From Bispira polyomma (lineage: Eukaryota), in assembly GCA_965649765.1 (NCBI GenBank), contig OZ287756.1:36270001-36334000 (forward strand): a DNA stretch of 64,000 bases, read 5' to 3'. Positions 12,151 through 60,243 of this stretch are shown here, in pieces; position 1 is the stretch's first letter, and the number at the start of each line of letters is the position of its first letter. Both the position numbers and the translations under genes were made by a program. Below the pieces are notes generated by a model that did not search any database, had not been told where the DNA came from, and worked only from the letters and a program-made list of their open reading frames with translations.

Positions 12151-12826
12151 CATGTGTACATATGACTAGTGAGTAAGAGTTAGTTTTATATTTTTTTGGC
12201 CTCACAGACTTCTATTTCAGCAATGATTTTGTTTAAAACAATGTATGTATTTGTGAGCTGTTTGTTTCTCCTGTAAAGCCGATGTAAAGTAGGTTATATA
12301 AGAGAAAATATACACTAAAAGAAATAAATAGTTTCTTAATCACTTTAATAACCAAAATTAGACATTATATATTTATTAAAGTACTGTATAGATAGAATAA
12401 AATTCAGTTAAATTATAAGTTTCAGTAATTAGTCTCCTTTTAATGAAAACCCTATCACAAAGATGCGTTTTCTGGGAATTATGGTTAAAATTAAAGGGTA
12501 AAAATTGTGAAACAGTTAAAAATTATTTCTAGTGAAAATGTTAAATTATACGACATACAAATAATAATATATACAATTTTTCCTTTATCTGCTATTATAT
12601 TAACCATATTCCTGTCGAAAATGTACCTTTCTTGTGTTCACTCAATGATGACAAGCATAAAACAAAGCAAATCTTCATTATCAATAAATTGATGGACCAT
12701 AGTAAAACATGATTATGGTGTTTCCGCAAAAATTTACGTGCTGCCTAAAACTGCATCTGACCGTTCAAACTGCTACACCACTGAATAAGCAATTTTCTAT
12801 TGTGCTGAGGCTATATATTTATATAT

Positions 12827-13609
12827 GTTGTATTGAAAGTAGATAACCGTTGAATGTATACATTCCATGGCTTAACTGTTGAATGTGTACATTCCACAGG
12901 CTAGTCATCCAGCTGACATCCATGGAATGTATAGATTTAATAAGTATATTGTGGAGAGTGTACATTCCACAGTGCAGATCATGAAATGTAGATAAAATTT
13001 ATTAATGTTATTATTTCAATATGTACAAATCAGTTTGATTTCTTTCTGTAACCATATCTGTATTGTTAATCCTTACTTAAAAGAAGGTATCTCTTAAATG
13101 GATTAGTATATCAAGGGGGTAAATAGGTCTTTTAATTATACTGCCTACCTAGCTGTAAAAGTAGAGGGTGTTGCTTTGATCTTAATAGCAATTAAATGGA
13201 TTAGTATACCAACGGGGTAAACACTAAATAGGTCTTTTATTTATACACTTTGATATTAATGAACTCCTGAAGATAACAAAATATATACTGCTTTGATCTT
13301 CCTAAGAAACTGGTATAAATACTGGGATGAAGGAGAGCAAGTTTATTTATTTCTATCATGGCAGTATCAAGATTACAACAATTTTTGTAAATGTTTTCCT
13401 TGTAATATGTGTTCGCTTTCTTTAATTTTTATGCACCTTTGTTTTTGTACTCCACCTTTAATGACTCAGCCCATTAGCTGTTGAATGTATACTCTCCACA
13501 GATAAATCATTGAATGTATACATTCAACAAAATGACCATTGAATGTACACATTCAACAGTTGGTGCCATGGAATGTATACATTCAACGGTTATCTACTTT
13601 CAATACCTC
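12827..13609. mobile_element. Non-autonomous TIR DNA transposon (MITE) in a TA-rich site
   Basis: Perfect 42 bp inverted repeat gtattgaaagtagataaccgttgaatgtatacattccatggc (12830-12871 / 13565-13606), flanked by (TA)n, with repeated subterminal palindromes gaatgtatacattc. Confidence 0.9.
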
Positions 13610-13777
13610 ATATATATATATATACATATATATATTGTTAAATAAGCTATATATATTAACAGTCATGTCTGCAGTCAGGGGTAACATATAACATTGTCCA
13701 TGACACATAAATTTGCTGCAGTCTATGATATCTTAGTAGTAGTCCCTGTCTGGTCCTGTCTACATCACTAGTCAACT

Positions 13778-14999: not shown

Positions 15000-15089
15000 C
15001 TGAAATAACAGACCAATGTGCGTGGTATGTGAGGGGTATATGAACCATCTGATATCAGATGTCTATAAAAACATGTCGTTCTGTCTGAA

Positions 15090-16255
15090 AACATGTGGAT
15101 ATGTCTGAGAATATAGAAATAGGATTTCTATGTGTATATAGGAACATGTGGTTTTGTCTGACAATATGTGGATATGTTTGAGAATATGTGGTTATGTCTG
15201 ATAACACATGGGTATGTATGATAACATGTGGTTATGTCTGCGAACATATGGCTATGTACGAGAACACATAGTTAGCAAAGAAACATGTGGATATGTCAGC
15301 GAATTTGTGTTTATGTCTGATAACATATGTGTTATGTCTGAGAATACGTTGTTATATCTGAAAACACACACTTATGGCTGAGAGCACATGATTATGGCTG
15401 AGAAAATGTAGAATAATAATTTAATGATATACAAGGACATGTCTGACAAAATAATTATTGGAGACTATATAAGTGTGTCTAAGAACATGTCTGAGAACAA
15501 ATGTTTGTATCTGAGACCAATTGGGTATGGCTTAGGCCATTTGATTGTATCAGAAATTAACTGGGTATGGCTTAGAACAAATGGTTGTATCAGAAGTTAA
15601 CTTGGTATGGCTTAAAACAAATGGTTATAACAGAAACTAACTAGGTATGGCTTAAAACAAACGGTTGTATCACAAATTAACTGGGTATGGCTGAGAACAA
15701 ATGGTTGTATCTAAGACCAATTAGATATGGCTTAGAACAAATGGTTATATCATAAACTAACTGGGTATGTCTTAGAACAAATGTTTGTATCAGAAACTAA
15801 CTGGGTATTGCTTAAAACAAATGGTTGTATCAGAAACTAACTGGGTATGACTGAGAACAAATGGTTGTATCTGAGACCAATTGGGTGTAGCTGAGAACAA
15901 ATGGTTGTATCAGAAACTAACTGGGTATTGCTCAAACAATGGTTGTATCAGAAACTAACTGGGTATTGCCTAAAACAAATGGTTGTATCATAAACTAACT
16001 GGGTAAGGCTTAGAACAAATGGTTGTATCAGAAACTAACTGGGTATGGCTGAGAACAAATGGTTGTATCATAAACTAACTGGGTATGACTTAGAACAAAT
16101 GGTTATATCAGAAACTAACTAGGTATGGGTTAAAACAAACGGTTGTATCACAAACTAACTGGGTATGGCTGAGAACAAATGGTTGTATCAGAGACCAATT
16201 GGGTATGGCTTGGAACAAATGGTTGTATCAGAAACTAACTGGGTATGACTGGGAA
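15090..16255. repeat. Intronic minisatellite: degenerate 20 bp units (15090-15400) and ~19 x 40 bp units (15490-16255)
   Basis: Units atgtggttatgtctgagaac and aaatggttgtatcagaaactaactgggtatggcttagaac; related 20-mers recur at ~17010-17150. Confidence 0.95.
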
Positions 16256-17289
16256 GATGTGGTTACTTCTGGAAATAGTTAATATTAGGTAATTTTTGGT
16301 ATGACGCAGTTTCTTGACCTTGTTTGCTGGAATCCTACATCATATTGGTCTATGCTCATGTAATCACTCACCCCCGTTTTCACTAAAATTTTGATGTTTC
16401 GCCCAGTGGGCGCTTCCGCGGATGATTTTCGTATTTGGAATAATAATGAAGATATTGGGCTACTGTACATTTAATTGTCATTTTGGCCGAATAATTTTAT
16501 AGTTCTGGTAATAAGAAATAATATATATCAGTGTGCCAAAAAAAATTTACTCTTGAATATCTACCAACTACAAAAATAATAATGTTTAAGTTTGAAGAAC
16601 AAAAAATATTTATCCAATATAGAGTAATGTTTTCTGAAGAATACCAATTTCACTTTTTCTCCAATATTTTACATCCACTTTGTAATAGTACAAATTGTTC
16701 AATCTATTTCTTACCAATTTGTATAGTTCAGTATTATTATTCTAGGCAACCATCATCTAGTATAATGTTCTAATATAAAGTACAAGTACAATGTTCTAAT
16801 GTATTGGTCTAGTAATTACTTTTAAGTAAAATGTCCAGTGTTTCTGCATATTCTATGTGTATGATGATAAATTTAAATATTATGAGAGAACCGGTCAACT
16901 TATTGTGTAGTTTTTTTTTGTTTTTTTTGTAACAGAGAAAAATGATGATAAAGATATAAATTTTAAAAAAATATTAGTAGATTGCATGTAGCGATGTTAT
17001 GGAAGATGTGCTTATGTTTGAGAACAGCAGCTTATGTCTGAGAACAGCGGCTTATGTCTGAGAACAGCGGCTTATGTTTGAGAACACAATTTATGTCTGA
17101 CAACTTATTTGACAACATGTCACAGAAGAGAAGGATTATGTTCGAGAACATGTTATTGTAACAAATCATTATTGTTAACATATATACTTCTAAAAATAAA
17201 ATTGCAAAGCCAAAACATGGCAATCTAGTATTTTATGCTGTACAGTATTATTAAGCTACACCATATTTTGAGTGACTGTTAACACCAAT

Positions 17290-20549: not shown

Positions 20550-20689
20550 CTGTATAGGAAGCCAGGGGTTTAGTGTAATATAGGGAATTATAGAGACTGT
20601 GAGATCAAGAGGTAAGTAATGAGGGAATGTCCAGCATTCTATATGTGAGATGTATCTTTTATTTCCTTCAAACTGTACATCAAGTCCAA

Positions 20690-21150
20690 AACAAATATAG
20701 GTTGATCAGCATATTGTTTTTGACAAATATCGGTTGATCTGCAGATTTTATAATAACAAACATAGGTTGATTAGCAGATTGTATAATACCAAATAAAGAT
20801 TGATCAGCAGATTGTTCAGATTGTTTAAAAACAAACATAGGTTGATCACCAGATTGTATAATAACAAACATAGGTTGATCACCAGATTGTATAATAACAA
20901 ACATAGGTTGATCAGCAGATTGTTTAATAACATAGGTTGATCAGCAGATTGTTGTATGACAAATATAGGTTGATCAGCAGATTGTTGTATGACAAATATA
21001 GGTTGATCAGCAGATTGTTGTATGACAAATATAGGTTGATCAGCAGATTGTTTAATAACACACAGAGGTTGATCAGTAGATTGTTTAATAACAAATATAG
21101 GATGATCAACAGATTGTTTAATAACACACAGAGGTTGATCAGTAGGTTCT
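20690..21150. repeat. 33 bp minisatellite (~13 copies)
   Basis: Unit acaaatataggttgatcagcagattgtttaata and variants; explains the repetitive ORFs on both strands. Confidence 0.95.
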
Positions 21151-21714
21151 TTAATAATGTATAGCTTTGCAATCAGTTAATCACTACAAAGAATGACCCC
21201 TCCTCTACCATCCGCCAAATTACACTGGCACTTTTAAATCATTGGCAAGTCTACTTACTGAGCTGACTCAGCCACCACGCAGAAAACAGAAAACTAATCG
21301 TGTTGGTTGTTGGTCTGGTTTAACACCTGTATGGTCACAACCAGACAACACACTTCACACTTCATGGGAAAAACTAGATATGTCCATAATAAGATAAAGC
21401 ATTACCATCTGGGTGATGTTTGAACATTGGTATGCATTGCCTGCTTTGATATTTTCAAGTTCGAATAAAACAACAGTTGAGTCATCTCTTGCTTGGAACC
21501 CAATGGCTTATAACCCAAGTGTGACGTGTGGTGACATGGCTTTAGTAATTTTACCACCCTTGTACATTTACAAAAAAAGATATTGACACTGCTGTATAAT
21601 TTTGTCATTTTGTTTGTTTTCTTTCGTTTTTGTTTTATTGTTTAAAAAAATGTATCATTTACACTATAAATAAATAACTAAAAATTGAATCTTTCAGAAT
21701 TTATATAAAATTGT

Positions 21715-31279: not shown

Positions 31280-32820
31280 TGGCAATCAATCCCTGGGTAA
31301 TGATAGCAAAACACTTCCTTATATGAGTAATACATGTATATGTGCTCCTGGGGTCCATTCCAGAACATAATATAGAACTATGTGATGTTTAAAAGTCTAT
31401 TAACAAGTTATTTAATGCAGCCTATTCTTTTCTAACCTTAGTCCTAAGTCAGTGAAACTTGCCCAACTGATTTGTAAGGTGTCCCCAACTCGGGACTATT
31501 TGTGACATGTATTTATCTCAAGCTTTAACACAACCCAATCTATGGTTTTTGGCTTTTACAAAGAAACCAGTTCAGATGAGCTACAGCTGAAATGTATTAA
31601 TCAAAAACTGCAATCTTTCTTAATGGGACTTGCTCTTCAAGGTTTACAAAAGGTTTATTTCAATCGTCTGACATTAAATCTACATTGAAGTGTCAAAGTA
31701 TAAAAATGGACTACATCTTTGAAACATTAATTTAAAATTACAAATGGCAATATCATTGGGATTTAATCAGAATCCTAAAATAGAATGTGCTGTATATATA
31801 CTGTCTTTTAGGGTGGTATGGTAATATGATTGTACTAAAATTTAAATTACTTTCAAAAGCACTAGTAACAACACCATACCCCTCTTTAATCTATACTTCT
31901 GTTATTTACATCTCAGTTATTTAGGAGACAATTTTGGTGACACTAAACATTTCAATATTTAAACATTTTTCACTGGTTTTTATGATGTAAATAATTATTG
32001 TTCTGTGTGAAGACTCTCTGATGCTGTGACTACTATCAGTGAATCTGTAACCCTCACCAGTAATTGTATTAGTATTGACCCCCACATGTCTATAGGATGG
32101 GTAGGTTATTGTCAGTCTTATTTTCTGGATGATTTGCCTTTGATTTCATGACAATCCAGACACGGTTGCTGTCTTACAATGCAACTATCAGACTTCACAG
32201 CTTATTAGTTTCTCACTCCAGCTTTGGGTGGACAATGTACTGTCGCTAACTATTTCTTCTGTCAATAAAGATCCCTGACACACATCATAATATAACATTG
32301 TATACGTATGACTGTTGTGTTCTTGCTTGAAATGTCGGTGGATGAAAATGTCATGTTTTACATGAACAATAATCCTTAAGTTTTTGACATTATGCATTAA
32401 AGGTTAAAAGAAATTTTAATTTTACACAAAGTATTGAGATTAAGTTTTGAGGTACACATTACCCTGACATAACAAAATACATGTATTGTAGTAAACACTA
32501 TGCAAATGTAATTTGCTTACAAAGAAATGCACTTCTAGCCACAGAGATTTATTCAGTAGCAACCTAATTTAGAGAGTGGACAAGGACAAAGCTTGCTATC
32601 CCACATAAGCCAGTGTTGTGTGTTTGTTTTGGCCATTATCGACCACTGATTAATACAAAGTTTTCTTATTGAACGAGACAAGAATACATTCCTCTGACTG
32701 TATATCAATTAAGGGAGTCTTACAGCACAATAACAGTTTGAAGAGCTAGGTACTAGATAGATTTGGATGAGATGTGATGAGACTCTGTCAATACAACAAT
32801 GATCTCACCCACAGTGTGGA
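31280..32820 (-). pseudogene. Decayed TLR/LRR ectodomain relic R3
   Basis: LRRCT-like HLNWFL...VTNSPELGTP; DNA similarity to 48150-48900 (e.g. gatttgcctttgatttc; cacagcttattagttt). Confidence 0.5.
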
Positions 32821-32824
32821 GACA

Positions 32825-33245
32825 GGTAATAGAACAATCTACTGCTATTGGCACAGATAGGTAATAGAACAATCTACTGCTGTTGGCACAAATATCTAAT
32901 AGAATAATCTACTGCTATTGGCACAAATAGGTAATAGAGCAATTTACTGCTATTGGCACAGATAGATAATAGAGCAATCTACTGCCATTGGCACAGATAA
33001 GTAATAGAACAATCTACTGATACTGGCACAAATAGGTAATAGAACAATCTACTGATATTGGCACAGATAGGTAATAGAGCAATTTACTGCTATTGGCACA
33101 GATAGGAAATAGGACAATTTACTGATATTGGCACAGATAGGAAATAGAGCAATTTACCGCTATTGGCACAGATAGGGAATAGAATAATTTACTGCTATTG
33201 ACACAATTAAGTAAAAGAACAAACTACTGCTATTGGCACAGATAA
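32825..33245. repeat. 35 bp minisatellite (~12 copies)
   Basis: Unit aggtaatagaacaatctactgctattggcacagat. Confidence 0.95.
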
Positions 33246-33449
33246 GTCCATTTAACCTTCCAAAAGCTAAAAAGTACTAACACGTATTTAATACTCTTAA
33301 CTGCTGTATTATTGATATTTTAAATTTCTAGCTCTAGCAATTTTAATCGCCATAAATAATATTTTTAAAAATCTGGTCAGCTAAGACTAAGACATTATTA
33401 AGAATGTTTTGAACATGTTTGTCCACTGAATATTTCAGATTGACTATTT

Positions 33450-35750
33450 TAAAGGAATGTATAATACAATTTTTTGGGGAGGAAAATCGTTGCTTGTCTT
33501 ATTTCTCTTTGATGACACAACTATTTACATCTAAGTACATTGTCAGTCATATTTGCAATGGAAGACCTTGTATTTACACTTGAGACTGTCCTGTTTACCA
33601 CTGTTTACTCTGACCTGTATTCACACTTGAGATTGTCCTGTTTACCACTGTTTACTCTGACCTGTATTCACACTTGAGATTGTCCTGTTTACCACTGTTT
33701 ACTCTGACCTGTATTCACACTTGAGATTGTCCTGTTTACCACTGTTTACTCTGACCTGTATTCACACTTGGCTTAGACCTGTCGTCTATCTGAAAACTCA
33801 ACTACTGCCAAGCCATTGTGCAATTTTGTGCAATTAAGTTTGATTGTTAAGCATAGTATTAATTTATTATTTAGTCATCATTATTTTTAGCCAGAGGCAT
33901 TGTAAGAAATATGGTAAAAATTAAAACTAAAATCATTTCATTTTTGCACTTCACAAACTAATCCTGGTTTGGCAATGTATTTGAACATCATAAATACACA
34001 CCAATGCTTGAATGTCTCATTTGTACTTTCACCAATTAGACAAAAACAGTTCATTAATACATTGTACTTTATGTCTACTTTTGTTTTCAACTTTTGTTTT
34101 CCATGTCACCTCATGACCCCTCCCCATCCCTTCCCCAACACTTAAATATAAAAAAAGGCTTATTATAAATATTATAGGCTTGCTACTAAGTAATTAGTGA
34201 TATTTTTTATTAACAGAAACAATATTTTTGTAACAATGCATCAAAACATCGACATTGTGGTCACAAAGAAATAGAAAAAAACAAACAATTTACAAATGTA
34301 TTTTGTCTCTCTTATACCCATGTTCCACTATGCCGATCATACCCCCGACCTTAACGATAATAAGTTGGGGGCTATTATGGTGGACGATTTGCCCCACTAA
34401 CGACTTATTTCTTGATGAAAAGACTTTTTCTATCAGGGAGGTTGCAGAGGTTTTCAAACATGTTAAATGACCTTTGAGATTGAGTGTGTATCGGCCGATC
34501 AGTCGACCCCCCTCCAGACTTATCTTATTCTTGCAATGACTTATCTCTTTCACTTAACACTTATCTTTTCCTTTCAACTACTTATTGTTTGATAAAAAGA
34601 CTGAACTCCTCTAAGATTTAAAAATTTCACCTCAAACAGCAAGGATTGCTAACTTATCTTTATAAGATCGTGGTGGTGACCTATCTTTTTCAGTTAAGAC
34701 TTATCTTTTCCTTCCAATGACTTATCTTTTCCTTCCAAAGACTTATCCTAATGACCCTTCAGACTTATCTTTTCAATCTTTATATGCAAATTTTTCCGCC
34801 TTTTTTAAATATCATGGGGAAATGCCAATGATTGGCCAGGATGCTTAGATTAACAACACTATAGGAATACATATGAAGATTAGAGGCAGGTTTGTTAATA
34901 TAGTTCATATTTATCAGTAAAACAGTGATTTCATCTTCATTTATCTGACAGTTGATAAAGCAGCTATGGGTGTCCCCCATTCAAGGCACACTTAACTGAG
35001 ATGGGTTCCCATTGTACTTACGTATATGGTGAACAAAATCTTACCAAATGGGCCATAAACTCATTTAACTCTTTAGTTTCTGGGTTTTATTGACACATAA
35101 TGTTGTTAAATTACATTTCCCTGGATTTGAATGGTTTGCTCAGTAACATATTAACTATAGATGTTAAGTCACATCAGTTTTAAATCTCAGATTTTTTAAA
35201 TAGGAGAATGCTTCTCCATCTGGACAAGTGTGGACAGAGTGGCAACCAGTAAACTTTTTACTCTTTGTTAGTAACTACATTAGCGCTGGTCTTTCTCTAA
35301 TTTTTGATGAGGTCCATTTTTTCATTGAAACATATGATACAAAACTATATTAATATAACGTTACTAAGATTATAATTTTTGTACTACACATTTAGTTTTG
35401 TTTGTAAAGAATTTTATAAAAGAAGCACATTTTTTAGGTTTTATAATAGTTTGAGACTTAACTTTCAGCTTACATGAAGTTGTTTACACTAAAAAGTGTG
35501 TAAATGTATTTCGCATTGATGGAGATCCACTTTTGGACACAGATTTATTCAGTACCAAATTAATTTAAAAAGTGGAAAAAAACTAATACTTTTATTCTAC
35601 TTAAGCCAGTGTTGTTCAGAGTAATTTAAAGTTTTCTTATCCATTCAATCAAGACAGGAATAATTTGCTGATAACATTTTGTTTTTATAGCTACTGTCTA
35701 TATAATATGATATATCTACCAAACTGTTGAAAGTATCGACGGAGAGAGTT
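33450..35750 (-). pseudogene. Decayed TLR/LRR ectodomain relic R4 (contains a 47 bp repeat and an insertion at ~34250-34810)
   Basis: LRRCT-like NCTMAW at ~33805-33825, shared with 50000-50020; 34860-35200 aligns with 61190-61730 and 51160-51310. Confidence 0.55.
33569..33770. repeat. 47 bp tandem repeat (~4.3 copies)
   Basis: Unit tgtattcacacttgagattgtcctgtttaccactgtttactctgacc. Confidence 0.95.
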
Positions 35751-38720: not shown

Positions 38721-40344
38721 GAATGCACAATCTATTCTCTGTTAGATTTATCTAATTGATGTTTTATTTATTCATCAGTGTTATACATACTTATGCCAGT
38801 CAAAGTTGTAAAATGGCTTCCTAAAAGTAACAGTTCCCAACAGTTATACTCCAATACAAATAATTAGTTGTAAAAGTGATAGTAATAATACAAAGTAAAT
38901 TTTAAAGTAAAATTATGAATTTTCTACTTGTTCGAATTTAAATCAGCTAGAAACTTTTTATAATTGCGGGGGGGGGGGGGGGGGGGGAATTTTTTACTAC
39001 AGAATTATTTGTTAACTTTATGTTCAAAACATTCTTTGTCCAACCCCATTTTGAAATAACCTTTAATTAAATGTACCTTCAATCAGAAATTTATTTTGTA
39101 TTGAAAATAGACACAACTAGAAAAAAAATTCACTGTGCTCATTTATTTTTGTGTTTTATAAATAGCTTTTGTTTAACAATGGATTAAGAATTTATAAACA
39201 CACTGAGGCTTGACTTTTACATTAGTAGGTAGTTGTAAGTGACAACTTGTAACCAATAAACCAAATATTACCATACAAAACAGTATATCAAATTATTCTA
39301 AACTCAATGTATAGCAGTATCATTGCCACATTACATCCGCTGCTAAGAAGCAATTTGAATATGATTAGTTTGTTATAATGTGTCTTAACATTATGACAAT
39401 TATTTGCATTAATAAACATTGTGTTTCACAAATTTGTGGGTCAGAGTTTGGGATGGATATCAATTACAGTGCCCACTAATACGTCATTCAGTTCCCTAAT
39501 GTGGAAGTATTGATAAAATAATAAGAAGTCGTGATGGATTGAGAAGACAGTAAAAGATAGAGTTTTGAGGTTTATTTTTCTGTACATATTATTCTCATGT
39601 ACAGGGTGTATACAATATATTTAAAAAATTTTAAATACATGTAAAATTTTAAATTAGCCCATACGGCTGATACAAGCCCACTAGTGCGAACATAACTTGT
39701 TAGAACAAATTAGTGAGTATCCATTAGTCCATAAACACGCAATTACCAATGTATAGTTCTAGCCATTTACACTGTCAGTATGTTATTCTTACTACGTGAA
39801 TACACCATATACATTCACAATATACTATGATAATAAAACCGCGTATTAAAATACTTTTGGCATATGCATAGGTCTAGCCATTGACCATATCACCATATTA
39901 TTTTTGTTATGTGTTAAAATAGTTAACATTTATCATACAGCCCACATATGGGTCTACCCCAGTAGTGTACCATAGTACATCATGCTACTGATTTACCTAG
40001 GTTATCATAATGGTCCTTAGGATCATGCTATACTATACGACTTTCATCAGCTCTTGTGAATGTCATATTTGTCAAAGTAATCTTGAATATATATAAATCT
40101 TGTCATATTGAAAGCTAACGCCCCCAGCGTTGGCGGCCTCAGTTCTGGGGTACCAGGCTGTTCACTACTATGGGATGGATGGGCGAGTATATAAGCCATC
40201 CCCCTTTCATATTCTCCCGCCTTTTACCGTTTGTCAGCAGAGCACTAGGGAAATTCAAATACTGTTTGGGTGGCAAAGAGAGTGTTTTATATTTTATACT
40301 GTTATATGGTTTTAGTTTTTTTAATTCAATATACACTCAAGTCA

Positions 40345-41366
40345 TGCCAAGTCAAAAGACTGTGTTTTGTCCGAAATGTTTGCAAAAACATGAGAGACCG
40401 GTTGGAAGAAACTGTCCGGTTAATATGCCTGATATCTCGGGTGAGGGAGTGGAGGTTGACGCTGGCTCCCATGAGGACTCGCTGGTTCATCCGAACGAGG
40501 CTGTATCTAGTGCTATACTACAGCAGTTACAATCACTTAGCCAGGAAGTCGAGAGGATGGATCGGCGAGTCCAGCAGACAGAGGCAGCGTTAGCAGCCAA
40601 CCTCACCAGTAGTAAGGCAAGTACCGTTCCTCCTAGCATTGCTCCTAGTGTTTCTAAAGAGCTAGTCTCTGCTGACGAAGGTAAAAGCCCACCTACTGGC
40701 CCAGATACTGTCGTTCCGAATTTATTAGTCAGAATGCTCAGATTCAGTTGCAAGTTGAACAGAGGTTAAAGGAACTCCGGTCTCTTAATGAAAACCCCTC
40801 AGGTAAAATTAAGTCTCAGAGAACTGGGGGAAACGAGGTTATTGTAAACAAGGCGGTCGAATGGCCCCAGAATTATGTGCTGACTGGCAGTTCAAAGACT
40901 CGCCCTAGTTACGACGACCTAACCCTTGTACAATGGGTTTGTGGCTTCACCTGGATCGCTCATGAGGAGAAGTCGACTGAAATTAAGAATGCTATGCTAG
41001 ATGGAGGACGCCCAAGATTTTTCGTGCGAGGCGGCGAAGGCCTGCCACACGGTAGTCCTAACCAATATGGAAATGGACCAGCTCGGGTAGTTGGATGTCA
41101 AGAAGGTCGACCGGATTCGCAGGGCACACGCCCAACGTCATGTAGGTGTGTCAAGATCTATTCATGGGGTGAATGGCCGTGCTGTGGGCACTGGCAGTAG
41201 TAAAACTAGTCAGAAAAAGTCGACACCTTGCAGGTTTTTCCAAGAAGAGACTTGCAAGTTCTCTAGCTCACATAATACAGGGGGGCAAATGTATAGGCAT
41301 AGTTGTGAAACTTATGGGGATAGTCATAAGACCAGTATGTGTAGCAAAAAGGAGGCAAAAAACTGA
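40345..41366 (+). pseudogene. Ngaro gag-like ORF1 (frameshifted)
   Basis: N-terminal CPKCLQKHERPVGRNC, coiled coil, WPQNYV core, C-terminal CRFFQEETC...H...H.C zinc fingers; split over three ORFs. Confidence 0.88.
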
Positions 41367-43875
41367 GGGGCCACTGCTTGGATGCAATGGATAAAAAGGT
41401 AAAAAATTTTAAGGTTTTAAATGGAACTGTCTATGGCACAGGCTTCAAAGATTTTCATTTGTTGGAGAAAAATGTGTATCAGAAAATGTGTAAATATATG
41501 AAGGTAAAAAGGCCTAATGTTAGTTATAGTGATGCTTTAAAAAGTACTGCTAGTACCAGAAAACCAATGTTTGTATATAGTACTGGACATACAGAAAGTC
41601 TGAGCCATAAGGGTGGGGTTGACAGGTTTAGCTCTGGAAATGTGACAAAGGGCAGATTTTGCCAACCACAAAAGGTTGGCAGAGATGAACTCAAGAATAA
41701 TGTTGACACCTCTGCTGCCACATCTATTCAAAGGTTTGAAAAGTTAACACCTGTAATTGGCACCTCCATTGAAGTGGCTAAGAAAGTGACACCTATTGTG
41801 AAGCGACCCCCATGCACAAAGCAACAGGGCATGGAAACAAAAGGTGTTAGAAAATTGATTCAAAGGGAGGGCGAAAAGAGCCGCGTCAATGAAGCTAACT
41901 GTGGCCTTCAGCTTAACAATCGGTTTTCCGCGTTGGTACAGATACCTGTGGAGGACAATGCAGTCATTGTGAGGGTCGTTCGCTTTAGTGACACGCCGAG
42001 TAACAATGGGGGCTTAGCAAAGCACCAACAGACAAGTACTTGCACAGAATGTGTTAATGAAAATGTTGAAACCTCTGATAAGTATTTGTGTGCTTTAAAG
42101 CACAAGAAAAATAAAAGGGAGTTGCTGCAGAAGGCGGCCTCGAATCAAACACACAAAAAATGGCAGGACCAGAGTAGTCATGCTTATGGATTTATTCCTC
42201 TCTCGGCTTTGGGCAGTGAGATTGCCGACCATGGTGGGGGAGGGCACGAACTATCCATATTACAAATGCATAAGAAACTACGTCTTGATGGTAGGCATAA
42301 TTATACTGGCCTCCAGATTCTTGTCCATTCTCAATTAAAAGCTGAAACGTGGGGAAAGTATTTATAAACATACTGGGATTGGCAACTGCCTCTCCTTATA
42401 AAATACGGATTCCCTCTAGATGTGTGTCGAAAAATTCGTACTGAGTCGAATGAAACTAACCATAAGTCGGCAGAGGAATTTCCTCAACATGTAGACGCCT
42501 ATATGAAGCAAGAATGTGGCTTTGGGGCAATGCTTGGTCCTTTCGACACTCCACCAATTCAGAATTTGCATTGTTCCCCCTTAATTACCAGACATAAACC
42601 CAACTCGATTAACAGACGTGTGATCGTGGACTTGAGTTGGCCTCAAGGGGCTTCAGTAAATGCAGGTGCTTCGTCGACTTTGTATCTGGGTGTCGATTTT
42701 TTACTGTCTTACCCTTCCATTGATCATTTTTTTGGGTAAGGGTTGTCAGATATTTAAAAAGGACGTGAGTAGGGCGTTTCGCCACGTCCCCATTGACCCT
42801 GGCGACATTGACCTCTTAGGGCTGAAGTGGAAATCTTACTATGTCGATAAATCGCTGCCGTTTGGTTATTTGAATGGCAGCACTATTTTTCAACGAATTT
42901 CGGATGCAGTGTGTTTCATAATGCACTCAGAAAATCATAATGTCCACAACTGTATCGACGATTTTTTATGTGTATCACTTCCCAGCAAAATTCAGGAAAC
43001 GTTCATAAGACTGCAAGAATTACTTGCTGAACTGGGTCTTACAGTTAGTCAGAAAAAATTGGTTCCACCCAGCACTGAGGTAGTCTGCTTAGGCATAATA
43101 ATTGACACAGTCAAATGCACAACTTCTATCCCATCTGAAAAAATGACAGAAATTCAGAGCAAGTGCAGGGATTGGGCTTCAAAAAATTATTATACCAAGA
43201 GAGAACTACAGTCCTTACTGGGGCTTTTGCTATATATCTCTAAATGTGTTAAATATGCTCGGGTTTTCTTGAATAGAATGTTGGAACTGCTACGAGATAA
43301 TCACAGTAAAAACAAATTGTAATAAGTGATGCATTCAGACGTGACTTAAATTGGTTTAGAACTTTTGCAGAGCAGTTCAATGGTGTTTCCTTTTTCTTAC
43401 ATAAACCCATATCAGGCGAGATACAATTGGATGCCTGCCTCACAGGCATGGGGGGGGGGGGATTTATGGAAATCAAGTGTACCAAATTAAAGTTCCTACA
43501 AGTATGACAGAGTATAATATAGCTTCTCTCGAAATGTTGAACATTTTGGTAGCAATGAAGTTATGGGTCCAAAAATGGAAGGGTCAGAGAATTTTATTAA
43601 AATGTGACAATGAGGCAGTAGTCAGTGTGTTACAGACAGGCCGTACTAGAGACCCCATATTGGCCACTTATACCAGAAACATATACATGTTAGCCAGTAA
43701 GTTTGACATTGAAATTGTTGTAGTCCATATTCTAGGTAGAGAAAATAAAGTGGCTGACTAACTTTCCAGATGGGCTGAGACAGAAAATAACCACCTATTA
43801 TTAAATCAACTGGCTGGACCAATTCAATGGCTTCCTGCCCCTGACAATTTACTTCATGTGAATACTCTTATATAG
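41364..43875 (+). pseudogene. Ngaro pol: long N-terminal region, RT and RNase H (disrupted)
   Basis: RRVIVDLSWP, DVSRAFRHVPI, LPFG, NCIDDF (decayed YxDD), DACLTGMG, IASLEM, CDNEAVV, HILGRENKVAD. Confidence 0.92.
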
Positions 43876-43893
43876 CAGGTTTTTCTTTTCCAG

Positions 43894-44877
43894 GCACTCA
43901 CCCTGTGGGTCTGGCTCTGATGAGACGGGCTTGTGATAGGCTGAACTCAGCTCTTACTCCTGCCACTAATAAAGCATATGACAGAATGTTCCGACAGTTC
44001 CTAGCTTTTGGAGCCTTTATGTCGTGGCCTCCCCTCAAGGTAACTGTGTTGCAAATTTTAGCATATTTAGAGTTTTTAAATTTCAATGGGGTTTCGGCCT
44101 CTCAGGTAGTAAATCACATCTTGGCTGTGAAGGCAAAATGTGTTATGTTTCATATAGATGTTCAAGTATTTTCTGATAAGAGAATTTCTTATTTCACTAA
44201 AGCCTTGGCCATGCATAGACCTTTACAAGCAAAATTGAAGTCAATTTTTTATGTGCACTTGCTTAGGGCTCTCATTAGTAAATGTGATAGTACTTACATG
44301 GGCCAAATTTTCAAGGCTGTTTATTTGACAAGTTTTTTTACATTTTTGCGTTTATCCAATCTGTGTCCTCATTCAATGGGGTCATACTCTCCTCTTAAGC
44401 AATCAGCTAGAGCTGATGTTTTATTTAAGCCAGGGTATGCAGTCATCATGGTTAAATGGTCTAAGACGCTGCAGAGAAATGATGCAGTTCGGTTGCTAAC
44501 CATCCCTAGTATACAAAATTCAACTCTTTGTCCTGTTCAGGCTTGAAAGCTGTGTTAGCCATCTCACCTAAAGGGAAAAATCTCCCATTATTTCAATTTA
44601 AACTCCAAGGCTCATGGGTTCCACTAACGGACACACGTGTGCGAAGGCACCTCAAAAATGTACTATCCTTACTTGGTACTCAATACTCTGGCTTGACCTT
44701 TCACGCCTTCCGACGTTCAGGTGCCACCTTTGCGTTTAACAATAATGTCAAGATTTAGGATATTCAGAAACAGGGCACCTGGACGTCGGATTGCGTGTGG
44801 CGTTACATCTCAGACTCTGCTGATGCTGGTACTCAAGTTGCAGATTCCTTTAAAGATGTCCTACAAAACACCTACTA
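43894..44877 (+). pseudogene. Ngaro tyrosine recombinase (frameshifted)
   Basis: FLRLSNL (catalytic R), WSKT, HAFRRSGA (HxxR), GTWTSDCVWRY (catalytic Y). Confidence 0.92.
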
Positions 44878-47800
44878 GTTTGGGGCTTTTTGGTCTAACT
44901 TAAAATTTTAGGCTTAAGATCTGTCAAAATAACACTAAATATTATACCTTTTTTGGGCATAAGGTCCCCCCCTTCATTATATTAGTACATATTGTACTCA
45001 AGTATCTAAAGTTCGACTTAAAACCCTAACTCAAACTTCAGACTAGCACAAATTTAAAGTTTAATCGCTTAAGTTTGCCCTTAAATTAAAATTTCTACAA
45101 AACTTAAACTCTTAACCTTAAACTCAAATCTTCTAAGTTTGGACTCAAAGTCAACTTTGGCAAACTTATACTCTTAAACTCATTGTACCTAAGGTCACCT
45201 TAACGTAAGCTTTGTATAAGCTCAAGGCCTTAAACTCACTTGAGTTAAGGGGACCTTATGCCCTCAACAGTATTACGTATTCTACAAAGAAACTGTATAT
45301 AAAACATACGTTAGTAGTAGAAATCATGTATACATAATAAAAGTATTTAACCGCAATCTTTTCTTACTATGTGTTGTTGGTTTAATATCTATCATTTGCC
45401 CACACACCGAGGAACTGTGAAAGCTAACGCCCCCAGCGTTGGCGGCCTCAATTCTGGGGTACCAGGCTGTTCACTACTATGGGATGGATGGACGAGTATA
45501 TAAGCCATCTCCCTTTCAAATTCTCCCGCCTTTTACCGTTTGTCAGCAGAGCACTAGGAAAATTCAAATACCCACCCTCCACTGTCCCTGGTGATAAATG
45601 TATATGATATACTTGCTAACTTATTAATGAAAAGCTACCTAGCCCGGGAGCTCTGACTCACAAATTTCTGCTTAAAAAAATTGTGTGTTATTTCAGATGT
45701 TAAGCAAGCTTCTCATGTAGATGTGCATGTTGCGTTTAACCTCTGTGGTATTCTCTGGAGCTGCATCGCGCTAGGACCTGGCCAGTTTGTCTGTGCTTCT
45801 AGTTGAGTGACTTCTATCTGTGTTTCATGAACAGTGATGGCAAACGATCGTGCCTGGGCCAGGTCCTCTCTGTATGGTGGTGGTGCATCTCTCTAGCTTT
45901 AGTATTATTGGAGCCTCAGTATTGTCTTCAGGATGCTTCAATGTATTACATGGAGCCTCAGTATTTCATGGAGCCTCAGTATCAAGATGGAGCCCCAGTA
46001 TTTCTGGAACAAGATTCCTGCAGATGTTGAGATTACATATTAAAATGACTGTCTATTTAAATAATTTATGTCACTGTAACTTCCCAACTGAGTTTTGTTT
46101 GTTTTTGGTTTTCTTGTTTTCACAAGCTAAGGGATCGTATTGGTCGATCACGTAAGGTGCTTGCAGACTGAGCTAGTAGGGAAGTTTCAAAATACAATTT
46201 TATTTTATATGCAGGACGGAATCTGGGTTTCAAGATGGCCGACTGGCAATGGTATCAGAATAGCGACTGGCCGGTGGGCTTACGTGATTTAAAGGCTGTA
46301 TTATATATGATTCTTTTAAGCATGATCCATTATATATTTAGTAAACTGTGATGTTCAGGCTTGCCTGTTTTATAAATCTATTTTAGTGGGAACCTGGTTT
46401 TCCTGTAACTTTTATACAATTACTAACGTTTTTAAAATTTTAGCAGTCTTTGTACTTGCAGTTCTTACATGTACCATGGTTAATTGATAAAGTGTTATAT
46501 ACATATACATACAACGACATACAGGTGGTCTAACTTAAAATTTTAGGCTTAAGATATGTCAAAATAACACTAAATATTATACCTTTTTTGGGCATAAGGT
46601 CCCCCCTTCATTATATTAGTACATATTGTACTCAAGTATCTAAAGTTCGACTTAAAACCCTAAGTCAAACTTTAGACTAACATAAATTTAAAGTTTAATC
46701 GCTTAAGTTTGCCCTTAAATTAAAATTTCTACCAAACTTAAACTCTTAACCTTAAACTCAAATCCTCTAAGTTTGGACTCAAAGTCAACTTTAGCAAACT
46801 TATACTCTTAAACTCATTGTACCTAAGGTCGCCTTAACGTAAGCTTTGTATAAGCTCAAGACCTTAAACTCACTTGAGTTAAGGGGACCTTATGCCCTCA
46901 ACAGTATTGCGTATTCTACAAAGAAACTGTATATAAAAAATACGTTAGTAGTAGAAATCATGTATACATAATAAAAGTATTTAACCGCAATCTTTTCTTA
47001 CTATGTGTTGTTGGTTTAATATCTATCATTTGCCCACACACCGAGGAACTGTGTGGTCGTAAATCTCCCATCTCCAACGAAACCACCACTATAGCTGGAA
47101 CCCGCTTCCTATGGCACCAAATCGCCTAGCGAAGAGAAGTTCCCGACTATAGAGCTGTACTCCTGCCCTGGTATCCCACACCAGGGGGTAGTTTACAAGA
47201 AGGGAACACAATCTTCACACAGACACGGGTTTGAGCTTATTAGTGGTGGCACGCGAGCTATATAGGTAATCATTTCCATAATGGAGGAGCAAAGGGGAAG
47301 GTGGAGGGAAACATAAAACTTTTTCCAGTGTTTACCAGAGTTTACTGGTTTCACATACTGGAATCAAAATGGTGCTTGAATCTGGGTAAGCAGAAGCCAA
47401 ATCAGCAGGGGGGTTTATTAGTGATTGGTTAGCCCAGTCACGGTTGAATGAAATAGTGAGGAACAAGAAAGGTTTTTTAAAATGGTAGATTTAAGTGGAT
47501 GGTGAACTGACACAGCAGTCCCCTAAAGTGGTCGTGCTAGTCATACTTCCTCTTTTTATGGGGCGAATGTCCACAAAAATCAAATTGGCCAATTAGATGA
47601 GTTGTCATTGACTTTTCTGACAGTCCAGGGATTGGTTTCTACTGGACAACCATTACATCTCACGGCTCATTAGTTTGTGCCGTCAGTTTAGGTTTGCTTT
47701 TCATGTCACAAAGGACTCCTTACGCATTGACTGGTCATATTAGGTGAATTAATGATGGGTATTCTTAATACCATTGACAGTACATAATAGTTATCACCCA

Positions 47801-54800: not shown

Positions 54801-57800
54801 TTACAATAAAAATATATTCTTTAATAGCTGAGAATATTTAAGTTGAAAGGAGTCACTACTTGGTAAAATTGTATAATTTTGACCCATTTTCGTCAAAATT
54901 GAGCCTTTTTCGTCAGAAAAGCGTTTTTTGTCATTTAGGGTGACCTGTTTGTATGTTGTAGGCAGCTCCCCGGCGCTGGCGTTTCAGTTCACAGGAAGCA
55001 GTCAATTGACCTCGTTGCGGCTTACTATAAAAGACGGAACATTTTAAATTCTCCCGCCTTTCTTATTTTCATGTACTAGGAACAACTTCAAAACAATAGG
55101 TTTGGCGGTTTAAATTTGAATTTGTTGTTGATGCACTTGGATATTTTAGTTGTTTTAGTATTTTAATTTCAGATTGTATTTCTATGTTCACAATGCCAAG
55201 TATTAAAGATTTTAGTTGTTCCAAGTGGGGGGGAAAACATGAAAGGCCAGTCGGTAGAAAATGTGTATATTTTGTTGCACCTGAGGAATCCGTGGCTGTC
55301 GCCGGCTCCAGTGAAGCTTCTGTCTCCTCTCCAGGTCAGGACGATCTTATTTCTGGACAAATCTTGACACAGTTGCAATCCATGGCTGAAAAGATGGAGA
55401 GGATGGACCAATGAGTACAGCTCACAGAGGCGGCGATAGTGGGAGACCTCACCAAAAATCAGGTGGGTAGTAGCTCTCTTTCTGTTAATTCTGTAGTCGA
55501 ACCGAATGTCGAAGCTAGTGTTATCCCTACTGTTGAATTTCTAAAGAAAAACTCGGCCATTCAGACCCAGGTAGAACAGAGATTAGTAGAACTAAAAGCT
55601 TTGAATGAGAACCCTAATCAAGGTAAGCTTAAATCCCAACGAGGTGGGGGTACTGACGTTCTGGTTAAAAAATTAGTTGAATGGCCCCAAAATTATGTGC
55701 TTACTGGTAGTCTAAAAACTCGTCCAAGTTATGACGACTTAACTCTGAACCAGTGGGTCTGTGGATTCACTAGCATAGTGCAAGATGAGAAATCCCCGGA
55801 AATTCGCGAAATAATGTTGGAATACATGGCCAACTTGATGGAAGACTCCCAGGATTTTTCTTGGGAGTCGGCCAAAGCTTGCTATACTGTTATCCTCTCC
55901 ACGATGGAGATGGACAAACTTAAGTGGACAGAAGTCGATAAGATAGACCGTCTGAGAAGGGCGCACGCCCAAAGGCACAGTGCTAGTAGTAACAGTCTGG
56001 TAAGTAGCAAAAACGGTACTAAATCAGCTATCAATGGTAAGCAGAATTCGGCAAATTGCAAATTTTTCCAAGAAGGTATGTGTAAGCATCAGAGTAATCA
56101 TAAGACTGGTAATACATACTTCAGACGTGTGTGAAGTGTGTGGAGGTAATCACAAAAAATTGGCCTGTCATAAGAAGGGTTAAAAAAACTGAGGGGCCAC
56201 TGCAGTAATGCAGTGGGCGAAAAAGATATAAAGCGAGTTTTTAGTCGCACTGTATATAGTAAGGATTTCAATTCATTTCACTTGTTTGACAAGTCGGTGA
56301 TTAAAAAAATGTGTACATATAATAGAGGTATAACAAGTCAGTGTAGTTACAGTGAAGTCGTGGTTAAACCGCGTAGTAGCAGTAAGTATGTGGAAAATTG
56401 TGTGTTACAAAGTGTACAAAGAATACCAGTACTAATCCTAACCTTTTAAAAGAAAGTTTGGGGGCAAAGTTCTCTCTAGACATGTGAACAAAGCAACAAT
56501 GGGGGCGACCAGAGCTAGGCAAATACACAAGGTGAGAGTAAAAGAAATACAACCTATTGTCAAAACTCGGGTTCCTCTATTTGTGAACAAAAGTAAAAAG
56601 CTACTGGATTCCTACAGAACAAATAATCAGTAGCAGGCTGACACGGCTAACAGATTTAGTGTGCTAGGTCAGCCTGACACCTCCATTGTTGAGGGCCACA
56701 GCGACAACAATGGAAGTAAGTGTTTACTGGAGCCTATTGTTAGCAATACACTGACCAGTGGGGGAGAGGTTAGTACCAAAAAAAGGGGCAGTATTTCTCG
56801 AAAGGGGAATTCCCCCTCACAGGTCAGTATAAAGGAACAAAAGAAAAAGTGTTCAACAAGGCTTTACTAGTGACAAGTGTGTATTCGATTTGAAATAAAA
56901 GCAGAATAAGCGTGAATTGTTGGAAAAGGCAAAATTAAATGAAGCCCACATCAAATGGCGTGAACAAAACAAGGTCCACTATGGTTTTATCCTTTTGACT
57001 ACATTGGGTATAAAAATATGGGACAATAGTTCAGAAAATCTGGGTATTGATATTTTAAAAATGCACAACTTGTTGCGAAAAGATGGTAGGCAAAATTTTA
57101 AAGGTCTTCAATTATCAATAAAGTCTCAGCTTCATCCTGATAGGTGGAAGCGATATTTGAGCGAATATTGGGATTGGCAGTTACCTTTACTACTAGCCAA
57201 TCAGCGTGGCCCAATCACAAATTTGCTTTGGAATTTCCTGAACACGTCGATTTCTATTTGAAGGATGAATGTGACTATGGTGCAATGCTCGGGCCATATA
57301 TGGACCCTCCAATCAAAAATCTGCATTTCTCCTCAATGATGACACGTACAAAAACAACCTCGAGTAATAGGCGGGTCATCGTTGATCTGAGTTGGCCGAA
57401 GGGCCAATCAGTTAACACTGGTGCTTCACCCACCACATACTTGGGTACAGATTTCATATTGTCTTATCCTTCTATAGATCACTTAACAAATGAGGTATTA
57501 AAACTGGGGAGAGGTTGTAAAATATTCAAAATTGACATTAGCAGGGCATTTCGACACGTACCCATTGACCCTGGGGACATTGATTTGTTAGGCCTGAAGT
57601 GGGGTTCTTACTTTATAGATAAGTCACTCCCGTTCGGTTATCAGAACGGGAGTACTATGTTTCAGAGAATTTCAGATGCAGTAAGATACATAATGCACTC
57701 TGAGGATCATAATGTCCACAATTATTTGGATGATTTTTTATGCATCTCGCTCCCGAGTCAAATCGACAAAATTTATAAATGCTTGCAGGTACTGCTTTCG

Positions 57801-58628
57801 GAACTAGGACTTACAGTCAGCAAAAAGAAATTGGTCCCTCCTAATACCGTGGTTATATGTCTGGGTATTAGTATTGATACGGTAAAATTTACTACTTCGA
57901 TTCCTATTGAAAAATTGCAAGAAATTAAAAATATATGTGTCAGATGGAGAAGTAAAAAATCTTGTACCAAAAAAGAGAGTATATCTGAATCGAATGTTGG
58001 CATTATTAAGAGACAACCATAACAAAAGTAGATTTCCTCTGACTGAAGAGTTTACTAGAGACCTTAGGTGGTTTATAACGTTTATAAATCAGTTTAATGG
58101 AGTCTCCTTCTTAAATCACAAGCCGGTTAATGCAAAAATTGAGTTAGATGCTTGCTTAACAGGCATGGGAGGCATATATAAAAATCAAGTATATAAACTG
58201 TCAGTCCCTACTAGTATGTCCCATCATAATATTGCAGAACTGGAGATGCTGAATATATTGGTAGCTTTAAACTTGTGGGCTGAGGCCTGGCGTGGATTCT
58301 GAGTATTGTTCAAGTGCGACAACCAAGCTGTGGTCAGTGTCTTAGAAACGGGGCGAACAAAAGACCCAATACTCGCTACCTATACTCGCAACATATATAT
58401 GTGGGCTAGTCGTTTCAATATTGACATCAAAGTTGTACATATACTAGGCGTGGATAACAATATAGCCGATTTATTGTCTAGGTGGGAGAAAACCAAAAAT
58501 AATGAGCAAATGCTAGCTACTTTGACAGGTCCTGTAGTTTGGTTAGATACTGACCACACTTTGTTACAAGTTGATAATAATATATAGTTTAACTACCTTG
58601 ACTTGTATGTATTTCAGCAACAAATCCA

Positions 58629-59549
58629 ATGGATAAGATGGCCTGCCAGAGATTGCATTCAGCTTTCGCTGCTTCAACAGCCAGAGCCTATGACAGCATG
58701 TATAGACTCTTTCTGGCTTTCGGGGTCTTTATGAATTGGATCCCCAGCCAGGTGAACGTTTTCAACCTTCTTGTATATCCAGAATTCTTAAATTTTAATG
58801 CTGTAAAACCCTCTCAAATTGCAAATCACTTGTCGGCCATCAAAGCTAAGTGCATCCTTTTCCATTTGAATGTTGAAGTTTTCTCTGATCCACGAATTTC
58901 ATATTTTACCAGAGCCTTGTTAATTAATAGACCTTTGCAAGTAAAATTAAAATGTATTTTTGACATACCCTTGCTTAGTGCTGTAATACAAAAGTGTAAC
59001 TATATGTATATGGGTCAAGTATTCAAGGCTGTTTACCTTACCAGTTTCTTTAGCTTTTTGCGACTCTCAAATCTATGTCCTCATTCAGTAAAGGATTTTT
59101 CACCTCTCAAGCATCTCGCCAGGGGCGATGTTATGTTCAAGCCTGGTTATGTAGTTCTCCTAGTAAAATGGTCTAAAACCATGCAAACAAATGATGCTGT
59201 ACGACTCCTTACTTTACCAGCTCTGTCAAATTCTATTTTATGTCCAGTCACAGCCTTAAAGAACTTGTTGGCCCTTACCCCTGCTGGTGCAAATCTTCCT
59301 TTGTTCCAGTTTAAGCTTTCGGCTTCCTGGATCCCTCTTACTGACACCCGGGTCAGGCGCCATCTCAAAAGTGTCTTACAAATGCTGGGATTACAAAATT
59401 CAAATCTCTCATTCCATGCTTTTCGACGTTCAGGTGCCACCTTTGCTTTTAATGATAATGTCCAAATTCAAGATATTCAGAGGCATGGCACCTGGACGTC
59501 GGATTGTGTGTGGCGATACGTCACATACTCAGCCAATGCTGGTTCCTAG
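58629..59549 (+). CDS. Tyrosine recombinase ORF of the second Ngaro element (open, catalytic residues present)
   Basis: 306 aa with FLRLSNL, WSKT, HAFRRSG and HGTWTSDCVWRY. The TAG at 59547 may be slightly premature. Confidence 0.88.
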   Translation: MDKMACQRLHSAFAASTARAYDSMYRLFLAFGVFMNWIPSQVNVFNLLVYPEFLNFNAVKPSQIANHLSAIKAKCILFHLNVEVFSDPRISYFTRALLINRPLQVKLKCIFDIPLLSAVIQKCNYMYMGQVFKAVYLTSFFSFLRLSNLCPHSVKDFSPLKHLARGDVMFKPGYVVLLVKWSKTMQTNDAVRLLTLPALSNSILCPVTALKNLLALTPAGANLPLFQFKLSASWIPLTDTRVRRHLKSVLQMLGLQNSNLSFHAFRRSGATFAFNDNVQIQDIQRHGTWTSDCVWRYVTYSANAGS

Positions 59550-59969
59550 GTAGCCAACGCTTTCTCTGCAGCCCTGGGTGCTTCTTCGTGATCTGGGTTT
59601 GGTGGTCTGCCACATTTTATGTGACAGTACATGTTCATATTAATGTATTCAAATAAAAACTTACAGTAACCATATAACTGTACTGGGCATAAGGTCACCG
59701 TACATAATGTACTCTTTTATCTCAAATTTGATTCAATCATCTCAAACTGAACTTATATTTAAGTCTACCTTAACATGAGGTTGACTTACTGCAACCTTAA
59801 TCTCAACATGTTTCTTTTTTGGCTTAACCTGACCTTAAATTCCAGTTAAGTCATTGGTAGACTTAACTTAAGCTGGACACGAATTTTGATCCAAGCTACA
59901 CTTAACTTAATTGTATTTTAAAAGTTTATTTATGGTCGCCTTATTCTCAAATTAAGGCTACCTTAGTGA

Positions 59970-60110
59970 TTTCCTGTAGTTAAGGTGACCTTATTGATTT
60001 CAAAATTCCTGTAGTTAAGGTGACCTTATGCCCTACCTTAGTGAATTCCTGTAGTTAAGGTGACCTTATTGATTTCAAAATTCCTGTAGTTAAAGTGACC
60101 TTATGCCCTA
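59970..60110. repeat. Tandem duplication of the right stem arm inside the element 2 B region
   Basis: Four copies of ttcctgtagttaaggtgaccttat with alternating ends (tgatttcaaaa / gcccta). Confidence 0.9.
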
Positions 60111-60243
60111 AACTTCATAACTGTGTACATATGATAAGTAGTAGTGTAACATATTAGTGCCTAATAAAATCTTAAACCGCAATCTTTTACTTGGTTATTA
60201 AACTTACATATTATTGATTAGGACGGCTACACAGGGGAACTGT

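Follow-up and report, generated by a model that had tools for sequence, protein, structure and literature searches.

Ngaro elements are tyrosine-recombinase (YR) retrotransposons of the order DIRS whose split direct repeats follow the layout A1-ORFs-B1-A2-B2, as defined in the available parts of three accounts (PMC8547959, PMC4157794, PMC9210276). The B repeat of the Xenopus element DIRS-53_XT is 152 bp long, and the terms 'hairpin' and 'secondary structure' occur zero times in the main text of the paper on that element (PMC9210276). For DIRS-1, the primer is stated to be unknown (PMC7192593). Other RNA genomes use structured elements to mark their transcripts. The RcRE is a 433-nt structured U3 element required for export of unspliced RNA, and elements of the RcRE/CTE type have been lost or swapped between retroelement lineages (PMC11379458, in excerpt). 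Several ssRNA viruses mark their RNA for packaging with repeated degenerate stem-loops, according to extracts of PMC6281560 and PMC5699041. Here we describe a domain in the B repeat of a clade of Ngaro-like elements that has features in common with each of these signals. No printed description of such a domain was found in the DIRS/Ngaro literature searched, a set outside which the founding Ngaro papers lie.

Two Ngaro-like retrotransposons in the window

By the window we mean the whole 64-kb stretch of DNA that was analysed. It contains two Ngaro-like YR retrotransposons, in which RT, RNase H (RVT_1 and RVT_3 by Pfam) and YR all lie on one strand. Their main parts are the following.

40109..40262, + strand: A1 split direct repeat of element 1, with a TATA-like box inside; 97% match to A2
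41345..43761, + strand: pol (RT and RNase H) of element 1, frame broken by stops and frameshifts; from ORFs, with RVT_1 and RVT_3 Pfam matches
43870..44878, + strand: YR ORF of element 1, broken in this copy; ~70% identity to the C-terminus of the element 2 YR; homologues with PF00589
44891..45417, + strand: B1 repeat (3' UTR) of element 1, starting at the (T)GGTGG boundary; 97.5% identity to B2
45418..45571, + strand: A2 repeat of element 1
46526..47053, + strand: B2 repeat of element 1, with a second copy of the domain (arms 46590-46604 and 46883-46897)
58602..59549, + strand: YR ORF of element 2, from the ORF list; PF00589 via homologues

Upstream of pol, element 1 carries a broken gag with a C-terminal Cys/His finger-like motif, and its A2 and B2 repeats are separated by a spacer of ~950 nt (0.9-1 kb). 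Element 2 (54957-60242) has a single B without A2-B2 downstream, a layout such as B1 x B2 recombination would leave. The full A1-ORFs-B1-A2-B2 arrangement, with the internal repeats downstream of YR, was seen in element 1 and in 3 of the 4 other copies fetched. The YR of the window gave no direct Pfam match; its homologues carry PF00589 (the homologue search returned 449 proteins, as sequences without DNA context). No methyltransferase match was found with Pfam: pol stops just past RNase H and YR comes directly next, leaving no room for one. Judged by repeat layout and domain content, the host elements fit the Ngaro definition.

Pyrimidine-AG acceptor-like sites stand just upstream of both YR frames (43875-43894 and 58610-58618), so that a full-length RNA would retain an intron. 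At the gag/pol overlap, a conserved AAAAAAC-TGA, with GGGGCCAC and a hairpin after it (41355-41395 and 56182-56216), is likely a -1 frameshift site. Elsewhere, the window holds an LRR-TIR (Toll-like receptor) ORF at 2912-5509 with tandem paralogous copies and repeats to ~10500, a 60-nt inverted repeat pair at 12812-13624, and tandem arrays at 15060-16360, 20676-21192, 32719-33313 and 33569-33803 with units of 20/40, 33, 35 and 47 nt.

A domain with complementary ends inside the B repeat

Between the YR stop and the TGTAHATA..AATAAA motifs, inside the duplicated B repeat, lies the domain with which this work is concerned. Its parts in the two elements are as follows.

44955..44969, + strand: 5' strand of the closing helix, element 1 B1
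44984..44998, + strand: AGTACA-N3-TGTACT hairpin or palindrome, with a fixed 3-nt spacer and nearly invariant arms
44999..45248, + strand: interior, a polar array in which CTTAAACTCA words accompany degenerate TAAG-K-Y-N-R-M-CTTA palindromes; predicted to fold as serial hairpins
45249..45263, + strand: 3' strand of the closing helix, element 1 B1
59685..60033, + strand: domain of element 2, with arms 59685-59699 and 60019-60033 and a hairpin at 59700-59712
59962..60110, + strand: ~74-nt tandem duplication of the 3' end of the domain, private to the element 2 copy, with a second arm copy at 60094-60108

The 15-bp arms that an initial annotation had reported are present in B1, in B2 and in element 2 at these positions, as are the GTACA-N3-TGTAC hairpins that follow them in both elements and all the other words that the annotation quoted. 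Its statement that the interiors cannot be aligned was borne out by BLAST, in which B1 and element 2 matched over 22 nt of the arm alone. The AGTACA-N3-TGTACT motif is confined to the window's sub-clade. On the sense strand, RNA folding gave z-scores of -6.7 for B1, -9.4 for B2 and -7.4 for element 2, and 0 of 100 shuffles of each folded as well. The covariance models of Rfam 15, self-cleaving ribozymes included, matched neither domain at E<=5 and gave one unrelated weak match elsewhere.

Two details of that annotation fared less well. It had read a C-G for A-T exchange between the arms of the two elements as compensatory; among nine family representatives with the 5' C, the change is compensated in 2, and the other 7 have no C-G there, so that this single pair, taken alone, is weak evidence. 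The caaagt/actttg stem that it listed can form at most 5 pairs, since its loop would be 2 nt. The 3' arm of element 2 sits inside the ~74-nt duplication, which the relatives in its family lack (alignment gap, query 405-466).

Covariation of the closing helix

Loci were collected by DNA, pattern and protein searches, giving samples rather than a census: 184 arm-to-arm copies, which formed 31 clusters, and 228 regions anchored on YR and lying downstream of it, which formed 56. A long end-to-end helix (score at least 9) was found in 37 of the 47 sampled families, or in 33 after four spurious or partial helices were dropped (L111, L232, L114 and L166, also left out of the interior word, unpairedness and palindrome tests). 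The two ends of a family paired better with each other (12.2; median rank 0.86) than with swapped ends (9.3).

In the window's own sub-clade the arms are nearly invariant, with no change at 11 positions. This invariance says little about pairing, and the sister clades are the informative ones. There, changes come with matching partners (the extension GGGCA to AGAC or AGGC; GGTCACC to GGCCACC; AAGG to AGGG or AAGC), and in some families the helix is extended inward with changes matched on both strands. One family has swapped the palindrome for AAGCCC/GGGCTT and retained the pairing; among the subfamilies of one cluster, a single pair that is G-C in most families appears as G-U, C-U and C-G. In a set of 27 sequences hand-picked from 41 sister-clade regions, 87% of the cells pair, compared with 18-57% for slid partners, and 7 of the 12 pairs change on both sides. 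The covariation score of this set (0.311) was equalled by 0 of 500 shuffles, and the paired cells likewise beat 500 of 500 shuffles and every slid register; the two pair-counting measures that are least sensitive to relatedness were not significant (43/500 and 161/500 shuffles). RNAalifold recovered the closing helix unprompted. Parsimony on a 156-copy YR tree counted 45 changes from one pair to another, spread over 18 positions; 14 of these changes lie in the palindromic core. The count has no null model, and the outer helix positions may not be homologous. On the same tree, internal wobble in the closing helix was G-U in 9 clades and A-C in 0.

Matched arms could also arise with no selection, if tandem duplication of a palindromic unit were combined with hairpin-templated correction during replication. 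Repeat units have often been gained or lost (duplications, deletions and 141-258-nt variants occur), as such a process would have it, and within families the constraint on stems is not significant: in five large families, stems showed no significant shortage of shared variants (9/52 vs 9/23, p=0.17). However, templated correction would erase wobble and mismatch states, and these persist across whole families; the position and architecture of the domain are also retained between families whose YRs are ~50% identical. We consider a neutral origin very unlikely. A further comparison of shared with private variants, based on RNAalifold (0/124 vs 232/573), was discarded as circular.

Neighbouring palindromes covary in a one-way interior array

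From the counts of palindrome spacers, arm invariance and compensated pairs, 11 of the 31 clusters were left out as flipped, deleted or unoriented variants. Exact TAAG-N5-CTTA, with its fixed spacer, was observed 19 times against 0.3 expected. The words of the interior run one way (forward to reverse, TAAACTCA 33:0, AAACTCA 39:1 and ACCTCA 19:0), and no interior was found inverted between its arms. For each palindrome, we compared the 3' half with the 5' half of the palindrome that follows at a distance of 3-25 nt, in 42 representatives with the arms excluded. The halves were CCTTA/TAAGG in 32 cases and CCCTA/TAGGG in 11; the mixed states were CCTTA/TAGGG, a G-U pair on the sense strand, in 12 and CCCTA/TAAGG, an A-C pair, in 1 (p=8e-5). 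A second position, TCTTA/TAAGA, gave p=0.003; kinship among the families means that both p-values overstate the case. Controls at distances of 40-120 nt gave p=0.05 (main position, borderline) and 0.45. Within a palindrome the halves showed no covariation (p=0.74, in a set that includes arm sites), and adjacent palindromes, compared whole, were no more similar in inverted than in direct orientation (10 vs 14).

The simplest reading is that the interior would be a row of small hairpins with the stem CCUUA/UAAGG, joined by one free base. As a model, this would explain why the centre of the palindrome is free to vary. The commonest word 3' of the palindrome's 3' half is AACT (37/165), and AAACTCA is predicted to be 74% unpaired on the sense strand against an average of 50%. 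The complement of TAAACTCA was found nowhere else in the elements of the window, which leaves a long-range kissing contact by this word unsupported. The design is unusual in that palindrome halves would pair with their neighbours and that this is kept while the sequence turns over past alignment.

A quite different view would be that the palindromes are binding sites in double-stranded DNA and that folding is a by-product. They might form an enhancer for the A promoter, recombinase accessory sites, or TAAGGTCA sites that resemble nuclear-receptor half-sites. The invariance of the sub-clade arms over 11 positions and the fixed TAAG-N5-CTTA spacer speak for such an array, both the arms and the spacer of AGTACA-N3-TGTACT are fixed as those of a DNA site would be, and B1 lies directly upstream of A2. 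Against it, TAAACTCA and ACCTCA are strictly polar, ends that lie 160-460 nt apart covary, and halves covary between neighbouring palindromes and not within one. Moreover, some subfamilies of a 19-copy cluster have lost the AGGTCA half-site and kept the helix. We hold an array of DNA sites to be improbable. No weight was placed on resemblances to the motifs of dif/XerC, steroid receptors, T-box, RFX and STAR proteins.

The initial annotation had proposed either a structured single-strand cis-element or an array of recombinase or Gag sites. The former is backed by the covariation across families of the closing helix and the interior hairpins. The recombinase half of the latter is weakened by the lack of inverted interiors, by the family that replaces the palindrome and keeps the pairing, and by an integration junction that lies elsewhere.

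The domain is confined to one clade of elements

The arm pattern had 1161 genomic matches, compared with 1 for the reversed control. The domain ranges in size from 160 to 460 nt, in B repeats of ~390-545 nt; it is found in both B1 and B2 and is identical in the two, and in intact elements the 5' boundary of the B duplication is upstream of it. On the YR tree the domain is confined to one large clade. B repeats of the outgroup clade are short, or long and unrelated, and some of the domain's words recur in one distant copy (L246). Because related short-B clades are without the domain, it is not needed by all Ngaro elements. Three members of the outgroup YR clade (L236, L242 and L258; C8, C9 and C1) have a long B in which different hairpins and an extra conserved tail replace the domain. 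In one insertion the 5' arm is absent from both B copies. L114 and L116 were considered as a mobile lineage without the 5' arm and rejected as such: their flanks are shared, as expected if a single insertion had been duplicated together with the surrounding host DNA. When viral and metagenome contigs were scanned with the pattern, 1 and 7 matches came up; none had an enclosed array or B context, and these were taken as chance.

The initial annotation had also raised the possibility of an independent MITE found outside Ngaro elements. With its terminal inverted arms, sub-terminal repeats and high copy number the domain looks MITE-like, but 30 of 31 clusters have no target-site duplication, and that of the remaining one is 2 bp long. 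Furthermore, an arm in B-repeat context, as judged by motif, is present at 38 of 40 position-ordered loci, B sequence lies upstream at one of the remaining two, and the arm sequence follows the YR tree. A MITE inserted in the B repeat is thus largely refuted and, in our estimate, extremely unlikely.

Which strand folds

Given a fold, the folded strand is probably the sense RNA, although the strand evidence is mixed overall. At mid-stem interior positions, wobble as seen from the sense strand is G-U in 20 cases and A-C in 6. In the sub-clade of element 1, a C faces an A at the inner end of the helix. The pair probability of the closing helix is nearly equal between the strands (0.87 vs 0.85), and when all stems were scanned without regard to strand, 20 G-U and 28 A-C were counted, as composition predicts.

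The fold might instead form on single-stranded minus cDNA, as a second-strand origin or as a handle for a recombinase or host factor. DIRS-1 accumulates single-stranded antisense cDNA, mostly linear, from a primer that is unknown (PMC7192593, in part). Among our sequences, the minus strand has the better z-score in 14 of 21 representatives, B1 of the window folded as DNA scores -7.2 on the minus strand and -4.6 on the plus strand, and at stem-end positions A-C exceeds G-U (21 vs 5). However, the lower energies of the minus strand follow from a C>G composition, and the advantage of B1 comes partly from changes specific to that copy, since B2 reaches a plus-strand z of -9.4. The internal wobble of the closing helix (9 clades to 0) and of mid-stem positions (20 to 6) also favours the sense strand. 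A fold on minus cDNA is, we believe, unlikely.

Motifs and boundaries next to the domain

Downstream of the domain, the following features precede or form the end of the B repeat.

45294..45301, + strand: TGTAHATA, matching the Pumilio-element consensus
45336..45362, + strand: AATAAA, then CCGCA and a U-rich tract; the pattern has 151 matches vs 2 in the control
45411..45454, + strand: B1/A2 junction, a GAACTG ... CAGTTC-type hairpin with one change in this A2
60124..60242, + strand: element 2 TGTACATA, AATAAA, CCGCA and terminal GGAACTG

The Pumilio-element consensus is UGUAHAUA in the available part of PMC4995099. In 42 of 56 family representatives a TGTA-N-ATA match is present, with a middle base that is T in 16, C in 13, A in 13 and G in 0. 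In most clades, whether they carry the domain or not, TAGTAG words stand between TGTAHATA and AATAAA (45294-45330 and 60124-60150 in the window). Together these motifs are possibly a Pumilio/Musashi-type 3'-UTR code; the UGUA within TGTAHATA is also a 3'-end motif. The AATAAA..CCGCA..U-rich series likely represents a poly(A) signal, cleavage site and downstream element, to judge from the motifs. Such a signal would explain the AATAAA..AACCGCAATCTTTT end motif that the initial annotation had noticed in both elements, where we found it together with the terminal GGAACTG.

These motifs bear on another possible role for a sense-RNA element, in 3'-end formation or translation with host proteins as ligands, either in read-through of the B1 poly(A) signal or in germ-line control through the Pumilio-type site. 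In correctly assigned families the helix ends 14-48 nt upstream of TGTAHATA, the middle base of which is never G (0/42), and a full-length RNA must pass the B1 poly(A) signal. Yet the TGTAHATA and AATAAA module is also found in clades without the domain, and the domains of B1 and B2 are identical, so that the domain alone cannot tell the two repeats apart. This role strikes us as quite unlikely.

At the B-end/A-start junction, the two arms of an inverted repeat, separated by 30-34 nt, flank an inner hairpin and covary as GAACTG/CAGTTC, GCACTG/CAGTGC and ACACTG/CAGTGT (junctions of the window and of L064, L115, L120, L234, L245, L247 and L257). The plus strand had the lower folding energy in 14 of 14 junction-like sequences. 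The junction could be a folded, attC-like recombinase substrate or a mask of the downstream element of the B1 poly(A) signal. Free B ends are followed by T or A in 109 of 123 cases. The elements end at GG.ACTG, ~150 nt 3' of the domain; with the crossover point there, the domain was rejected as a tyrosine-recombinase core site. At the other boundary, the identity of B1 and B2 begins at a fixed (T)GGTGG in most families. A G-rich tract precedes B1 alone (44879-44896; B2 46526) and is possibly a polypurine-tract-like start site of the plus strand.

A proposed role in RNA selection

The domain, with ends that are complementary and change jointly, a one-way array, neighbour-covarying halves, and its presence and position in B1 and B2, is by comparative evidence a real, clade-wide structured cis-element. 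As to what it does, we put about even weight on a reading in which the domain in the B repeat of one clade folds in the sense RNA, docks the element's own Gag-type protein, and selects the RNA for export, packaging and reverse transcription. The closing helix, predicted to have 12-19 bp, would loop out several small hairpins; these, in the model, have the stem CCUUA/UAAGG and a loop often starting with AACU, and would abut at a free 1-nt joint. The folded molecule would be RNA and not cDNA, and its ligand may be a Gag-type protein, bound through the C-terminal Cys/His motif, or RT. By analogy with RcRE/CTE-type elements or degenerate packaging-signal arrays, its job would be RNA selection. A retroviral-type element that can be replaced between lineages would fit a domain found in one clade only, and an RcRE-like export role would fit the acceptor-like sites before YR.

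A more specific proposal, to which we assign a low probability, is that the domain is the RNA signal that starts copying in YR retrotransposons that lack a primer site. Gag or RT would load on the hairpin array; as the RNA carries two copies of the domain, B1's 5' arm could pair with B2's 3' arm, and the RNA 3' end would be parked beside the B1/A2 junction, which would template the missing ends. For the study of RNA selection and priming in elements of the DIRS order, a compact, covarying, clade-wide domain offers a defined cis-element to probe and to mutate in reporters.

Comparison with known systems

The host elements share with described Ngaro elements the split direct repeats, the order Gag/RT-RH/YR and the lack of room for a methyltransferase. 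They differ in a B repeat of ~390-545 nt with a covarying domain and in a 0.9-1 kb A2-B2 spacer. Within YR retrotransposons, DIRS-1's internal complementary region (ICR) is likewise a non-coding cis-element that acts through single-strand pairing (PMC7192593, in part). As described there, the ICR pairs with the termini, and its counterpart here is the B1/A2 junction, not the domain.

The RcRE of HERV-K and retroviral CTEs are structured elements of several hundred nt, placed at the 3' end or in U3 of retroelements whose RNA is also spliced. The domain fits them in its 3' position and its covariation, and the acceptor-like sites suggest that its host elements may splice too. Unlike the RcRE of HERV-K and CTEs, it is built of repeated palindromic modules with high turnover, and no Rec/Rev-type accessory ORF was identified in its host elements. 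The packaging-signal arrays of ssRNA viruses, in the accounts excerpted above, resemble it in having several degenerate stem-loops with a common word; those stem-loops are dispersed, whereas the ones described here are clustered in one 3' domain inside a long helix.
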